Position numbers and translations under genes: made by a program. This document shows, in pieces, positions 1 to 33,413 of a stretch of 53,482 bases of DNA. The number at the start of each line of letters is the position of its first letter. The stretch's first letter is position 1. The DNA is from a virus. Lineage: Duplodnaviria; Caudoviricetes. The notes beneath the pieces were generated by a model that did not search any database, was not told where the DNA came from, and saw only the letters and a program-made list of their open reading frames with translations. Where the stretch lies: the IMG/VR virus record IMGVR_UViG_3300030117_002594, positions 1-53,482 of that record; one strand, given 5' to 3'.

Positions 1-7
1 CAGGAAA
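1..7 (+). repeat. 7-nt terminal redundancy CAGGAAA (same as 53476..53482)
   Basis: Identical first and last 7 nt; collapsing them preserves the reading frame (...DSAG|NGPH...). Confidence 0.75.
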
Positions 8-1091
8 TGGTCCTCATTTTATTGTAGGTAGTGATAATTTAATACAAACAACAACATCAGATTCAAGTACATTAAATGCAATACATACTACAGGTATATT
101 ACTTGATAATGTTGCAGGTGGTTCAAATATATTAACACTACAATCTTATAACCAAGAAATACAATTAACTCCTGGCTCAAATGCTGCAGGAGAAAGATAT
201 GTAGGTATTACAGGTAGTATTGATGTAGCGCAAGGCGGAGCAACAACATATAATAGAATATCAGGAGCAGGTACTAAAATAGGTGCTATTGCTAATAGTG
301 CTTTTGCTGGAACAAGTGATTTATCAACTGGCGATACAGTTATATATAGTGATAATGGTAAAATGCAAATAGATGCTAGTGAAGATATAGCAAGTATTAC
401 AACTGCAGATTTTATTTTTGGAGCAACAAGTTTAGCAGGTGCAAATTCAAGTGATAATAAAGAAGTTAAATTATATGGTAACAATACATCTGCTTATACA
501 CAATGGAGTCAAGCAAATAATAAACTTTTAGTAGTAGGTACTGCAGCAGGAACTACAAACTTTCAAGTACACACTGGTAAAGCAATATTTGGTAGAACTG
601 GTGTAGACTCTTTAGATGTTGACTTTTTTGGAGCTGCTGGAGAAATTGCTTCAGTTGATGCTGGTGATAGTTTCTTAAAGGTATCTCAAGGATTTAGAAA
701 AGTACCTGAAGTAAAAGCTGCAACAGTAACACTAACTTCACAAGAATCTGGTAGACCAATAGCAATTAAAAATAAAACTGCAGACTCTACATATACATTG
801 CCTGCTGTTGCTGATGGTCTTAATTATAAATTTATGATAGTAGAAAGAACTGGTTCATACGATGTAAATATAGTTACACCTTCTCAAACAAACTTTTTCT
901 TTGGGAGTGTACTACATGTAGATACAGATAATTCACAAGCAGTTGTAAGTTCTGATAATGATAGTAACAATAAATTAAATATGCAACTATTAGACCCAGG
1001 AAGTATGATTGAAGTTGCTTGTGACGGAACAAATTGGTACATATCTGGATACGCTGTTTCAACAGAAGCACCAGTATTTAGTGATGTATAA
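1..1091 (+). CDS. C-terminal part of tail/virion fibre protein (continues from 51450..53482 across the circular junction)
   Basis: The frame of ORF 363..1091 is open back to position 3 (GNGPHFIVGSDNLIQTT...). G/T/S/A-rich beta-repeat composition; C-terminal domain ends ...GSMIEVACDGTNWYISG. Confidence 0.8.
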   Translation, partial: GNGPHFIVGSDNLIQTTTSDSSTLNAIHTTGILLDNVAGGSNILTLQSYNQEIQLTPGSNAAGERYVGITGSIDVAQGGATTYNRISGAGTKIGAIANSAFAGTSDLSTGDTVIYSDNGKMQIDASEDIASITTADFIFGATSLAGANSSDNKEVKLYGNNTSAYTQWSQANNKLLVVGTAAGTTNFQVHTGKAIFGRTGVDSLDVDFFGAAGEIASVDAGDSFLKVSQGFRKVPEVKAATVTLTSQESGRPIAIKNKTADSTYTLPAVADGLNYKFMIVERTGSYDVNIVTPSQTNFFFGSVLHVDTDNSQAVVSSDNDSNNKLNMQLLDPGSMIEVACDGTNWYISGYAVSTEAPVFSDV

Positions 1092-1123
1092 TAAGTAAAC
1101 AAAAACAAACAGGGAGGTCAGAA

Positions 1124-1294
1124 ATGGCTAAAGAAAATAAAAAAGAAGAAACTAAACCTTTAACTGTAAGTCAAAAAATACAAGCGTTAAAAGGACAGCA
1201 AGAGCAATTAAGAGAAGGATTCCTTAAAATACAAGGAGCGATTGAATTGCTTGAAGGAATGGAAGCAGAGGGCCAAAAAGAAGAGGCTAAATAA
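1124..1294 (+). CDS. 56-aa coiled-coil protein (not in ORF track)
   Basis: SD GGAGG then ATG 1124; MAKENKKEETKPLTVSQKIQALKGQQEQLREGFLKIQGAIELLEGMEAEGQKEEAK*; TAATG coupling to the next gene. Confidence 0.8.
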   Translation: MAKENKKEETKPLTVSQKIQALKGQQEQLREGFLKIQGAIELLEGMEAEGQKEEAK

Positions 1295-29097: not shown

Positions 29098-30870
29098 TTA
29101 TGGTAGTATTATGTTTTGTTCTTTTGTTGGTATTAGTTTACACCCTTTAGGATATAAATTCAAATACAACGATTCTTTCTCACGATTGGCTGTAGTTTCT
29201 ATTTTAATTTTAGAAATCAAACCATCTTGTGATTTAGTTGGTGATACAGATATAATCTTGTTAGCATTGTAAGCAACTCTAAAAGAGCCTCTGCTAGATG
29301 ATATATCCATACCTTCTCTCATTGCTGTCTTGCTAATCTCACTAACAGCAAAAACAATTACGTTCTGTTGTATAGCAAGTTCCATTAAAGACTGAGAAAC
29401 TTCCTCTAACTTGATGTTATTATCACTTTGGTTAGACGAGAATAGACCCATATGGTCAACAATAACAACTTCTGGTTTAACAGGACACATTTGTATTTTC
29501 TTTGCTAATTCTTTAGAATTGCAAGGATTGTAATCAACAGTCAACCAATCAAATTGTTTGCTAATACCGTTTAGTTCTCCTCTTTTATGCATTTCTCTAA
29601 TCTCTTCATCTTCTTTCTCTAAATGAATTGACAAGAATCTAGACCATATCTGTCTTGGTGACATCTCTAATTCAAGAAAGTATGTTGGTTTAGCAAGTTC
29701 ATACATCCAGTTTTGTAATAACATAGTTTTCATAGACTTTGGTGGTGCTTGTATAATAACAACCTCACCAGGATATATAGGAAAATCTTTACCGTAAGGT
29801 CTACCAAGATTTACACCTGCATCGTCCATTTCATAAAATGTAAATAACTCTTTTTCCATAGCAGCAGCAGACATAGTGCCTACAGACTTCTTAGATTTAT
29901 ATAGTTTACATGTACTTTTACAAAAGTTATCCATTACTTGGTCTTTACAACCATATCTATTGCCTTTACCTCCATGTGCTTGATAAGCAGAGTTTATAAT
30001 ACCATCTAATTCCTTTTCTGTAAAAGGTTTTTCTGGTATATCAACTTTCTTACGCCATGATTCCATCATTACTCTTACAGTATCTTCTGGATATAACCAT
30101 CTAAGCCAAGCAGATAAACGTAATGCTACAGCATGCCTGTTACCAAATCCTGTACCTTTAAGCATTTCTGATATACAAGGATAGTTAGTAGGGTCTGGCT
30201 CTCTGCCATAATCTTTAGTAATCAAATTGTCGTAACTCTTTATTTTACGAGACTTTACATCAAATGGTGGATTCATAGTTTCATAGCCTTCAAGTTGGTC
30301 ATCAAACTTTTGTGATGTTTTAGCATACTCTAAAATATCTTCTATAGCACTATGTAGTAAGTTCATCGAAATTTGTACTTTCCACAAACCAGACTTGTTA
30401 TTTCTTGTATTAAGTGACCTTATAATACGTGTCTTATCTGTTACAGAAGGGTCTGCAATTTCAAATATACCTTTTTCTGTTAGCTCATCTTTAACTTTTA
30501 GATGCAAATCTTTACAAGGCTCCCATATAAAGTTCTTACTAGATATACCTACATGAAAACCAGTGCCACTAAAGTACACATTACATCTGTATACACCCAT
30601 ATCATCAAGCATTTTTACAAGCGCCATTGTTTTTTGTCTTGCTTTTTCAGGATTATTACCATCTATATCAAGTAAAAACTCATCAGGCATGTATATATTA
30701 CCATCATAACCTGATAGACTACTCTTCTTTTTAACATACTCAACAACATTCTTGTCATACTCCCATAAACTATGGAAAGTATCTTTCGCAATGTTTTCCC
30801 ATTTACCTATATCAGCACTATCCATAAAATGGTGTCTATTTGATAAACCGAAAGCAAATTCTCTTATCAT
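29098..30870 (-). CDS. AEP primase(-polymerase) fused to a PriL-like Cys domain and a RecA/DnaB-like helicase
   Basis: AEP motifs LLDID, YFSGTGFH, DKTRIIR; YPCI...RH...YGC...FCKSTC; degenerate Walker A QAPPKSMKT and Walker B VIVDH. Confidence 0.8.
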   Translation of the reverse strand: MIREFAFGLSNRHHFMDSADIGKWENIAKDTFHSLWEYDKNVVEYVKKKSSLSGYDGNIYMPDEFLLDIDGNNPEKARQKTMALVKMLDDMGVYRCNVYFSGTGFHVGISSKNFIWEPCKDLHLKVKDELTEKGIFEIADPSVTDKTRIIRSLNTRNNKSGLWKVQISMNLLHSAIEDILEYAKTSQKFDDQLEGYETMNPPFDVKSRKIKSYDNLITKDYGREPDPTNYPCISEMLKGTGFGNRHAVALRLSAWLRWLYPEDTVRVMMESWRKKVDIPEKPFTEKELDGIINSAYQAHGGKGNRYGCKDQVMDNFCKSTCKLYKSKKSVGTMSAAAMEKELFTFYEMDDAGVNLGRPYGKDFPIYPGEVVIIQAPPKSMKTMLLQNWMYELAKPTYFLELEMSPRQIWSRFLSIHLEKEDEEIREMHKRGELNGISKQFDWLTVDYNPCNSKELAKKIQMCPVKPEVVIVDHMGLFSSNQSDNNIKLEEVSQSLMELAIQQNVIVFAVSEISKTAMREGMDISSSRGSFRVAYNANKIISVSPTKSQDGLISKIKIETTANREKESLYLNLYPKGCKLIPTKEQNIILP

Positions 30871-30886: not shown

Positions 30887-31747
30887 TTAAAATATATATC
30901 GTACGTTCTGCCAAGGTAACGTCTTTTTATGTAACTTTAAAAACTTTTTAATATAACCCTTCTTCAAGTGTCTATCGTATCTTACGTTCTCACCACCATA
31001 TTCAGATAATTTATTTTCCTGTATGCCTGGTTGCCATAAATATTCTTCACCTTGTATTTCATTTTCTACATTATGAGCATGTAGTACTTTATTGTGTATT
31101 AAAAATATACACTCTGCTTTTACATTTTGCTTTATTTCATTGTCAACTAGTTTATCTATCATTTCAAATAACATTTCATAAGATTGTTTAAAGCCCTTGA
31201 ACATAACTATTGGTGAGTAATTTATATGCACATCATAACCTGCATCATAATACTCATTGATTGCTCTTACTCTATCTATTATCTTTGGTGTACCAGGTTC
31301 TAATAAATCAGATAAGAACTGTGGCATTAAACTAAATCTAATTCTAATTTTTCTTTTAGGATTGTATTTCAATAATTTTTTACCTACATATTTAGTTGCA
31401 GCAGTACCCATAGCCTTTGGCTCGTTTACAAAATAATCAAATAATTTTTCCCATTCATGATATTTTGCATGTAATACATAATCTTCGTTACAACTAAAAT
31501 CATATGTATAATATTTATTATGTGTTTGATTAGGTTTCTTAGGCCAATCTAGTAACCATAAATGACTTGCAATACTATCAATTATCATGTTTGTATTTTT
31601 AGCAACTGTTAAACCTGTTGGTACATTTCTTCTCATATAACAATAAGTACATTTGTATTCACAACCATGTCCAAAACTAGGTGTTATAAAGTCACTGCTT
31701 CTACCAGAATCTCTTATAATAAATGTTTTTCTGTTTAAATATCTCAT
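30887..31747 (-). CDS. splB: Spore photoproduct lyase-family radical SAM enzyme
   Basis: GCEYKCTYCY (CxxxCxxC), YDFSCNED (position of the SPL catalytic Cys), ATKY, RIRFSLMP, GYDVHINYSP. Confidence 0.8.
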   Translation of the reverse strand: MRYLNRKTFIIRDSGRSSDFITPSFGHGCEYKCTYCYMRRNVPTGLTVAKNTNMIIDSIASHLWLLDWPKKPNQTHNKYYTYDFSCNEDYVLHAKYHEWEKLFDYFVNEPKAMGTAATKYVGKKLLKYNPKRKIRIRFSLMPQFLSDLLEPGTPKIIDRVRAINEYYDAGYDVHINYSPIVMFKGFKQSYEMLFEMIDKLVDNEIKQNVKAECIFLIHNKVLHAHNVENEIQGEEYLWQPGIQENKLSEYGGENVRYDRHLKKGYIKKFLKLHKKTLPWQNVRYIF

Positions 31748-31847: not shown

Positions 31848-32375
31848 TTAGAATGGCATGTCGCCTTCTGTTTTATCAGCAACAGAACTACCAATATTAG
31901 GTTCTACCCATTCTTTAAAGTATTGCTCTGCTCTACCTTTCCAGTATTCTACATCATTTTCTGTAAATGTATCAAGAGCATTCTGTCCAACAACAGGTGC
32001 GATTCTTTGTAAAACTCTATAATATCCATCTGAGTTTTTATATAGATAAATATTAAATGTTTTGCCTGCTAATTGTTCTGCAGAATCGTCTATTTTTACT
32101 ACTACCTCATTATCATTTGCACTATCAGCAACTTCTTGTATACCAGCTTGAGCAAATCTAAATAAATTAGCAATAGCAAACTCTTCACCTGCTTTAGATG
32201 TTTTTGCATACATTCTCATGTTAAAACTATCAGGATAATCCTTAAATTTAACATCAATATATTTAGAGCCATTATCTAAACTACCATATTTAGCGCTAGT
32301 TACAGTTACTTCACTCCAGCCTGGTTTAAAGTTACCAGAGCCACTACCTTTTTTTATTGTCATAGTAATCGGCAT
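31848..32375 (-). CDS. Single-stranded DNA-binding-like protein (DUF669-like)
   Basis: Follows the Sak4-like gene; beta-rich 'KPGWSEVTVTSAK'; acidic C-terminal tail EGDMPF. Confidence 0.65.
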   Translation of the reverse strand: MPITMTIKKGSGSGNFKPGWSEVTVTSAKYGSLDNGSKYIDVKFKDYPDSFNMRMYAKTSKAGEEFAIANLFRFAQAGIQEVADSANDNEVVVKIDDSAEQLAGKTFNIYLYKNSDGYYRVLQRIAPVVGQNALDTFTENDVEYWKGRAEQYFKEWVEPNIGSSVADKTEGDMPF

Positions 32376-33133
32376 TATTTACTTCCTTCCTTGTTTATCG
32401 TTTTTAGACTTAATGTTTTACCGCTACCAGGGTCACCTATACATAATACTTTAGCATTACCCCAGCCTTTTTCTTTAACTACATTAAAAATCTTACTGTA
32501 GTCTTGTAACATCTCAGTTTGTAGAGCCTGACTCCTGTCTTTTGCATGACAATATCTTTCATCTCTACCTGTAACCCAGATGTAGTTTCTTTTACCTGTT
32601 TTGTCTTTATCTACTTTTGTGTATAGTACAAAGTCAAACCATTTACCTACATCTTCTTTTGTAGAACCTTCTACTGCAGGATACAATCTTTGTATACCTA
32701 GTTCATCATCTTTCATAGGTTTAGTATGGACATTTACTATAACACTACAAGGTAATTGATTTACTACATTCATCAAGATGTCAAGTTGATTTTTTATCTG
32801 ACCCCATTGTTGAATAGTTAGTTTATCTTTTGTACCTTGCAATTCACGTTGATATTTTTTTACAAGTTCAGTACCTGTATCAAGTACGATACAATCTAAA
32901 TCTACACCTTGTTTTCTAACCCATTTTGTAGATTCTTGTGGAACAGTTACTGCTCCTACTTTTACTTCTTCTTGTACTACTTTTCTTTCAAACAATTTAC
33001 CTAGCAATGATTTAAAATCACTGTATTTGTCAAACTGTAGCATTGGATAACCGAAGGCATTTTTAATGTCTTCACCACTACCAAGTGACTTGTAACCTTG
33101 TTCAAAATCAATATACAACACTTTCATTGGCAC
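32375..33133 (-). CDS. Sak4/AAA_24-like ATPase, circularly permuted
   Basis: KVLYIDFEQG, Walker B CIVLDT, QQWG, VIVNVH, FDFVLY, HAKDRS; Walker A GDPGSGKT at the extreme C-terminus. Confidence 0.8.
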   Translation of the reverse strand: MPMKVLYIDFEQGYKSLGSGEDIKNAFGYPMLQFDKYSDFKSLLGKLFERKVVQEEVKVGAVTVPQESTKWVRKQGVDLDCIVLDTGTELVKKYQRELQGTKDKLTIQQWGQIKNQLDILMNVVNQLPCSVIVNVHTKPMKDDELGIQRLYPAVEGSTKEDVGKWFDFVLYTKVDKDKTGKRNYIWVTGRDERYCHAKDRSQALQTEMLQDYSKIFNVVKEKGWGNAKVLCIGDPGSGKTLSLKTINKEGSK

Positions 33134-33173
33134 TCCTTTTTGTTATTTAATCGATTAAAGTCGGACTAATAAT

Positions 33174-33413
33174 TTAGTCATTTTCTTTTTTATTTCCTAA
33201 TGATTTTAGTCTTAATTGCATAATATTTGTTAACTGTTTACAATCATAAACTTCTAACTGTGCATCTGCAATTTTGTCTTTTAACTCTTGAGGAATTTCT
33301 ACCATTCCAGGGTGTCCTTCAAGAAAAGATTTAACCCAGATAAGAGTTTCATCTAGTTTTTGGAATGCTTTATTGCATCTCTCAAGCAACATTATTACTT
33401 TAGCATCTTCCAT
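33174..33413 (-). CDS. Hypothetical protein
   Basis: ORF with SD in a tightly packed operon. Confidence 0.7.
   Translation of the reverse strand: MEDAKVIMLLERCNKAFQKLDETLIWVKSFLEGHPGMVEIPQELKDKIADAQLEVYDCKQLTNIMQLRLKSLGNKKEND

Follow-up and report, generated by a model that had tools for sequence, protein, structure and literature searches.

A natural circular permutation of a Sak4-type RecA-fold ATPase is supported in a large clade of uncultured phages

Sak4 proteins of the AAA_24 family are ATPases made of a RecA core, in which the Walker A motif comes first in the chain. Sak4 from HK620 is reported to anneal single-stranded DNA (ssDNA) only with ATP and to be stimulated by its cognate single-stranded DNA-binding protein (SSB), the C-terminus of which is needed (PMC5928155). 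For Sak4 from Staphylococcus phage 52A, PMC11846896 describes a filament where ATP-γ-S is held between Lys41, Thr42 and Tyr216 of one protomer and Lys229, Arg231 and His232 of the next, with Lys41 and Thr42 being the Walker A residues. The genes for these proteins are usually located upstream of SSB and helicase genes (PMC8093625). Here we describe a gene of this family on the minus strand of the IMG/VR virus record IMGVR_UViG_3300030117_002594 (Duplodnaviria; Caudoviricetes), which has an estimated completeness of 96% and the 53,482 nucleotides of which make up the window that was analysed. The 250-residue product has its Walker A motif at the extreme C-terminus, and the profile comparisons support the proposal, made in an earlier note from the sequence alone, that it is a RecA-fold ATPase of the Sak4/AAA_24 family with a natural circular permutation.

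All six motifs of the family are found in the protein, in the order given by the earlier note: IDxExG, Walker B, WG, the histidine, AKDR and then, last of all, Walker A at nucleotides 32414-32437. Both nucleotide-binding motifs are intact, the Walker A GxxxxGK[ST] reading GDPGSGKT and the Walker B hhhhD reading CIVLD, and Lys237 and Asp83 are invariant in the two alignments described below (A1 and A3). The family's linear order, with Walker A first, is not kept, since Walker A occupies residues 231-238 of 250. The chain instead opens on the YIDFEQG strand, which aligns to the canonical profile from position 39 onward and to Pfam AAA_24 from position 24 onward. Asp7, Glu9 and Gly11 of this strand are invariant in A1, with Asp7 and Glu9 forming the acidic pair.

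The start of the gene had been placed by the earlier note at a GTG (33133), which opens the mechanically called open reading frame (ORF) 32375..33133, behind a Shine-Dalgarno sequence AAGGAG. While the Shine-Dalgarno sequence stands, the GTG is two codons too early. It falls inside the AAGGAG itself and the start position corresponds to the ATG at 33127 in 21 of the 21 homologues aligned in A1, so that this ATG is taken as the start and the product is therefore 250 amino acids long, not 252. The 79-residue ORF upstream (33174..33413), checked by eye, has no P-loop, as had been claimed. Homologues with the permuted order are annotated in their sources as 'hypothetical protein' or 'AAA family ATPase', NCBIfam assigns no family to the protein, and its matches in the ESM Atlas are AAA_24 virus clusters only, with no structure among them.

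To the Pfam family PF13479 (AAA_24), an alignment to which had been suggested as a check, the native protein matches only from profile position 24: residues 2-198 correspond to positions 24-194 of 195 with 61.6 bits (cut-off 27; E value 1.2e-16), and the first 23 positions, the P-loop part, are unmatched at the N-terminus. Residues 227-246 give a weak match to AAA_22. The protein also matches PHROG 124, 'Sak4-like ssDNA annealing protein' (E 7.9e-27). As controls, the AAA_24 match starts at positions 24-44 in four out of four permuted representatives and at 3-4 in both canonical ones. We then used a canonical-order profile of 231 positions, built from 22 relatives taken from representatives of 215-315 amino acids with an N-terminal P-loop among the matches of the distant search described below. 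Against the native protein this profile is split in swapped order, with positions 39-227 on residues 2-221 (146.6 bits) and, as a second domain, positions 16-37 on residues 225-246 (16.7 bits, E 3.6e-6). When the protein is concatenated with itself the two become a single domain, which runs unbroken over profile positions 16-227, starting at residue 225 in the first copy and ending at residue 221 in the second (170.6 bits), the C-to-N junction costing a 4-residue insertion only. The swapped order was seen in all nine permuted proteins tested and the continuous junction domain in eight, the exception being P0124 with its long C-terminal tail, on which the profile remained in two pieces. The break falls in the short loop that leads from the Walker A helix into the following strand, and about five residues now connect the former C-terminal helix (210-220) with the former first strand. 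Because profile searches match the core only (Pfam positions 24-194), such proteins may be mistaken for fragments without a P-loop.

The earlier note had called for homologues of the same order, and these are abundant. Of 388 candidates, a search kept 151 proteins with E ≤ 0.001, and in every one of the 120 listed [AG]xxxxGK[ST] occurs only near the C-terminus (0/120 in the first 60 residues). Alignment A1 consists of the window protein and 21 of these 120, spanning 51-90% identity. A more distant search with a profile against 1.84 billion cluster representatives (50% identity) returned 1427 matches at E ≤ 0.001, with 212 at ≤ 1e-10 and 28 at ≤ 1e-30. The best 150 of the 1427 were classified, giving 68 full-length permuted proteins (67 by script and P0148 reclassified by eye), 47 canonical ones (including the fusion P0214) and 35 fragments or unclassifiable sequences. 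Asp83, His134, Gly236, Lys237 and Thr243 are invariant in 35 diverse permuted representatives that are 24-44% identical to the window protein (A3), while six representatives that fail the strict motif have AxxGxGKT at the same C-terminal place. The permuted order is far beyond chance and evolutionarily fixed in a large clade. Among the best 150 of the 1427 representatives none has two true P-loops, as a tandem-duplicate intermediate would, though no dedicated search for longer or shorter homologues was made; the second P-loop motifs of P0148 and P0247 proved spurious by eye.

Neither blastn nor tblastn matched the gene to the INPHARED phages, where a divergent permuted query (P0134) matched canonical Sak4 cores only and none of 46 records covered at least 80% of it, and the A1 profile found no relative in prokaryote genome contigs. 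All sequences found for the permuted clade are from uncultured phages, mostly marine ones. Its members stay at about 245-300 amino acids. Among the canonical-order relatives, many of P0209-P0270 (about 300-520 amino acids) have long C-terminal extensions, that of P0247 being of low complexity and rich in proline and alanine with a cysteine-rich end, and in P0214 (534 amino acids) some 240 additional N-terminal residues precede a Sak4 domain of canonical order, which has its P-loop at residue 251.

Since the window is a metagenome-assembled record, misassembly had been named in the earlier note as something that would overturn the claim. The order is common to 43 distinct loci in IMG/VR, in all of which query residues 1 to at least 244 are matched, and to gap-free contigs of other studies: X6 record 11 is gap-free over 32200-33245 with 30 substitutions and X9 record 19 over 32300-33118 with 19. 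Contigs of X1 cover everything, although X1 may be the window's own source, and in run X3 the stretch 32311-32384 is left without a contig. In one X9 contig 32370 is joined directly to 32627, so that 256 bases with the P-loop end of the gene are absent, and the shorter side of the joint has only 30 letters; this probably reflects another strain, another organism or repeat, or a chimeric contig.

To follow the origin of the permutation, a quick, unrooted maximum likelihood tree (LG+G4) was calculated for 110 sequences, 66 permuted and 44 canonical, from 189 core columns shared by both orders; the P-loop segment was excluded and the permuted P0238 was dropped, with less than 60% of the columns filled. 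The permuted label changes twice on this tree compared with a mean of 34.6 for shuffled labels, and none of 500 shuffles was as low. Constraining the permuted sequences to one clade gave a log-likelihood that was 14.55 higher, and this tree was not rejected by the approximately unbiased (AU) test (p 0.64). The best tree found is the one with a single origin of the permutation, which is compatible with the data, although a quick, unrooted tree is no proof of it.

The AlphaFold2 model of the monomer, calculated from A1, has a mean predicted local distance difference test score (pLDDT) of 86.9 and a predicted template modelling score of 0.85. It has the RecA core only, with no extra domain. Its last elements are a helix at 210-220, a strand at 226-231 and a short helix at 241-244. 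The pLDDT is around 92 for the strand at 205-207 and helix 210-220, 92 for residues 221-230, 76 for 231-240 and 48 for 241-250. Strand 226-231 would be paired in cis in the model, judging from the DSSP strand assignment in the monomer. In ASCE ATPases another strand sits between β1 and the Walker B strand, so that the earlier note's expectation of docking 'next to Walker B' was loosely put. A β-hairpin of about 26 residues (46-71), which is extra relative to the canonical Sak4 profile, is modelled confidently (pLDDT ~90).

In a VIA structural search the best match is 52A Sak4 (8rc5_1A), with Z 12.5 and a root mean square deviation of 3.1 over 165 aligned residues, model residues 1..220 corresponding to chain residues 49..258. 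RAD51 paralogues, RAD51 and RecA follow with Z 7-10. The target ranges begin at residue 88-90 in RecA, 144 in RAD51 and 49 in 52A Sak4 and, given the P-loop positions of RecA and RAD51, in every row of the RecA class the range begins shortly after the Walker A helix of the target. These starts appear, in the predicted model, as the structural counterpart of the permutation seen in the sequence. The row for the fused RecA 3cmu_A (model 1..233 on chain 88..1217) is not interpretable from ranges alone. None of the 48,161 representative chains searched beats canonical Sak4 or convincingly covers the C-terminal element, and therefore no solved structure with the permuted connectivity was found among them. 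Foldseek against the PDB gave weak rows only, the best being RAD51 paralogues (E 6.7e-3) with 8rc5 at rank 13, which is no surprise when a sequential aligner is given a permuted chain. Against PDB sequences the A1 profile found generic P-loops only (ClpX, E 0.0047), and the canonical relative P0244 did not find 8rc5. Because sequence searches gave no family link to 8rc5, we can only infer that AKDR corresponds to Lys229/Arg231 of 52A Sak4. A complex prediction for two copies with ATP and magnesium gave ipSAE values of 0.01 and 0.00 and a mark of 0.42, which have no bearing on oligomerisation either way.

The ATPase gene is followed directly by a gene for an SSB-like protein, the ATG of which overlaps its stop codon. 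A homologue of this neighbour is found directly downstream of the permuted gene in 41 of the 43 IMG/VR loci, in line with the SSB partner that the earlier note had seen beside it, and its identity as an SSB is moderately supported. The predicted structure (pLDDT 76.2) has a β core like that of an oligonucleotide/oligosaccharide-binding (OB) fold, a single long helix and an acidic, disordered tail with DMPF at its end. The protein matches the SSB family PHROG 378 weakly (E 0.0047), and in Foldseek its best match is PrgE of pCF10, an ssDNA binder with an OB fold (E 1.4e-4, template modelling score 0.42-0.52), with bacterial SSB, PRD1 P12 and LEF-3 among the weaker rows. The homologues end in PF (19 loci), PW (13), PWD (4) or VF (5) with acidic residues before; acidic PF and PW tails resemble the acidic tip of bacterial SSBs. 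At the two most distant loci, L042 and L043 (43% identity in the permuted protein), there is no detectable SSB-like homologue and no ORF of at least 100 amino acids right after the stop of the permuted gene.

Further along the same module lies a primase-helicase-like gene, a homologue of which is downstream of the permuted gene in all 43 loci; in L042 and L043 the match is 26% identical. DnaB_C covers the C-terminal half of this protein only, its N-terminal ~360 residues having no family match, and a search of cultured phages gave one weak match only. Between the SSB-like and the primase-helicase genes is a radical S-adenosylmethionine (SAM) gene resembling spore photoproduct lyase (SPL). Homologues of it occur in only 8 of the 43 loci, in some of them across the permuted gene from its position here, and it looks like optional cargo. 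Elsewhere in the window, very large ORFs of 1581, 1963, 560, 1051, 1496 and 1293 amino acids on the plus strand (2469-26942) take up nearly half of the genome. The coordinates of the features are collected in the table.

Table. Features of the permuted Sak4-like gene, its product and its neighbours in the window (A1, alignment of 22 sequences; A3, alignment of 35 diverse permuted sequences; HMM, hidden Markov model)
Feature	Position	Strand	Remarks
Permuted Sak4-like ATPase, coding sequence	32375..33127	-	250 aa, stop codon 32375-32377; from ORF translation, Pfam AAA_24, PHROG 124 and homologue starts
Shine-Dalgarno AAGGAG	33133-33138	-	5 nt 5' of the ATG at 33127; read from the sequence
YIDFEQG (IDxExG) strand, residues 5-11	33095..33115	-	in canonical Sak4, preceded by the Walker A helix; here at the N-terminus
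β-hairpin insertion, residues 46-71	32915..32992	-	AlphaFold2 strands 46-57 and 60-71; insertion in the HMM alignment
Walker B CIVLDT with D83, residues 79-84	32876..32893	-	D83 invariant in A1 (n=22) and A3 (n=35)
WG motif, residues 108-109	32801..32806	-	invariant in A1; aligned to 'dWg' of the canonical profile
NVHTK, residues 132-136	32720..32734	-	end of the strand after Walker B; N132, H134 and K136 invariant in A1
AKDR (K-x-R motif), residues 195-198	32534..32545	-	invariant in A1
Connector region, residues 199-225	32453..32533	-	short strand 205-207, C-terminal helix 210-220 and short G-W-x-x-x connector
Relocated element, residues 226-244	32396..32452	-	strand 226-231, Walker A and short helix
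Walker A GDPGSGKT, residues 231-238	32414-32437	-	G231 and P233-T238 invariant in A1
SSB-like gene	31848..32375	-	175 aa; ATG overlaps the Sak4-like stop (TAATG, 32373-32377)
SPL-like radical SAM gene	30887-31747	-	286 aa; Pfam SPL E 6.7e-19; between the SSB-like and primase-helicase genes
Primase-helicase-like gene	29098..30870	-	590 aa; Pfam DnaB_C E 1.3e-10; same module

Taken together, we favour a circular permutant, fixed in evolution, of an ATPase that is of the Sak4 type and consists of the RecA core only; it would work like canonical Sak4 with its last strand in cis, and we would give this a probability of about 0.7. The data show the permutation, its conservation, a fold like that of Sak4 and the synteny with the genes for the SSB-like protein and the primase-helicase; the cis arrangement and the mode of action are predicted. 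The cut in the chain falls after the Walker A helix and before the strand that comes next, and the former C-terminal helix runs through about five residues into the former N-terminal strand, so that the central strand is made last, along with the P-loop and its short helix. This last strand would insert into the sheet of its own chain, rebuilding a normal ATP site together with Asp83, Asp7/Glu9 and His134. The histidine, which is invariant also across the 35 diverse sequences of A3, as are Gly236, Lys237 and Thr243 of the relocated end, is presumably the γ-phosphate sensor. By analogy with Sak4, as which the protein probably functions, it would bind ssDNA in an ATP-dependent manner and form RecA-like assemblies, with the predicted trans element Lys196-x-Arg198 reaching the ATP of the neighbouring protomer. 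Complementary strands would then be annealed with help from the downstream SSB-like protein, for which the acidic tail ending in PF is the likely contact.

Several observations weigh against this picture. The model is less confident at the P-loop (76) and in the last helix (48), an AlphaFold2 monomer can yield a cis solution only, and the strand at 226-231 was judged from DSSP rather than from the coordinates. Residue 9 of the acidic pair is glutamate only in the window's own subclade and mostly aspartate in distant permuted members (A3, by eye). In the free search of the tree, itself a quick LG+G4 calculation, the canonical P0236 and P0244 nest within the permuted group, and the assignment of the neighbour as an SSB is made up of a weak PHROG match, a moderate fold match to PrgE and a tail motif. 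The fall in pLDDT over 231-250, and the position of the relocated element at a free chain end, would also suit an arrangement in which the permutation is real and the C-terminal strand, P-loop and helix are donated in trans to the vacant central slot of a neighbour, such that only the polymer would have ATP sites. Polymers of RecA-like proteins have ATP at the subunit interface, and Sak4 of 52A forms filaments (PMC11846896). The connector from 210-220 to 226-231 is, however, only about five residues long, and the invariance of Gly221 and Trp222 in A1 together with the few indels in residues 199-225 among the 35 diverse members suggests a tight turn, which argues against donation. So does the passage of the canonical profile across the junction with a 4-residue insertion, as expected if the canonical termini are close, and the confident placement of the strand in the monomer, and we consider donation in trans doubtful. 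Slightly more doubtful still is a mutual exchange of the C-terminal element, in which each ATP site would be supplied by a neighbour and folding of the active site coupled to filament assembly on ssDNA; if true, strand exchange would be a mechanism of polymerisation unknown in the RecA superfamily.

It is also possible, if unlikely, that this permuted Sak4 homologue is not an annealase and serves the adjacent primase-helicase, for example as a loader or a fork-restart ATPase. The primase-helicase is syntenic in 43 of 43 loci and AAA_24 is a broad family with few members assayed (PMC5928155, PMC11846896). Yet Sak4 is both the closest solved structure and the PHROG assignment, an SSB-like gene that is translationally coupled and encodes an acidic tail fits a Sak4-SSB partnership, and canonical sak4 genes also adjoin helicase genes (PMC8093625). 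A Sak4 that was truncated at its N-terminus and gained an unrelated P-loop segment at its C-terminus, with no permutation by descent, would account for the matches of this segment to generic P-loops (ClpX, midasin, AAA_22). In the canonical Sak4 profile this segment takes precisely positions 16-37, which the N-terminus lacks, the score rises by 24 bits when the junction is read through, and after GKT the sequence is similar to that of P0236 and P0244, the nearest canonical relatives, which makes this origin very improbable. As for an artefact of assembly or gene calling, which the metagenomic source of the window might suggest, it is ruled out for practical purposes by the 43 IMG/VR loci, the 120 listed homologues from several sources and the contigs of other studies.

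Compared with the described members of Sak4/AAA_24 (HK620 Sak4 and 52A Sak4, 8rc5), the protein has a homologous core, all the motifs, the best fold match and the same size, and its gene is likewise upstream of an SSB or SSB-like gene and near a helicase gene. It differs in that the strand, Walker A and helix are at the C-terminus in the permuted clade, not the N-terminus, in the β-hairpin, and in that the clade is known from sequences alone, with no full-length permuted match in the INPHARED phage collection. The variant of a known family is real and conserved, a Sak4 homologue by descent without the defining order of motifs, and is apparently undescribed: a search of the full-text literature, with subscription-only papers outside it, found no permuted Sak4 or RecA-like ATPase. 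Since the clade is apparently abundant in marine phages, it may be a common recombination enzyme of the ocean virome.

With RecA, RAD51, RadB and the RAD51 paralogues the protein shares the same ASCE RecA core (Z 7-10), and ATP is expected at the protomer interface, whereas it lacks N- and C-terminal accessory domains, has the permuted connectivity and is only 9-18% identical. As the buried central strand of the P-loop/RecA fold, the Walker A strand is as a rule the first to be made; that a large clade in nature makes it last shows that the fold tolerates such rewiring in evolution. Circularly permuted GTPases (YlqF/YawG and YjeQ/RsgA) belong to the TRAFAC class, act in ribosome assembly and have the motif order G4-G5-G1-G2-G3. 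As the closest precedent of this sort, they too are a family-wide natural permutation of a P-loop NTPase, with the nucleotide-binding motifs in altered order. The likeness goes no further than analogy, as they are of another class with another breakpoint and no family-level homology, the fold matches here being to the RecA class. For studies of protein evolution and folding, the clade provides a RecA-class counterpart to these permuted GTPases.

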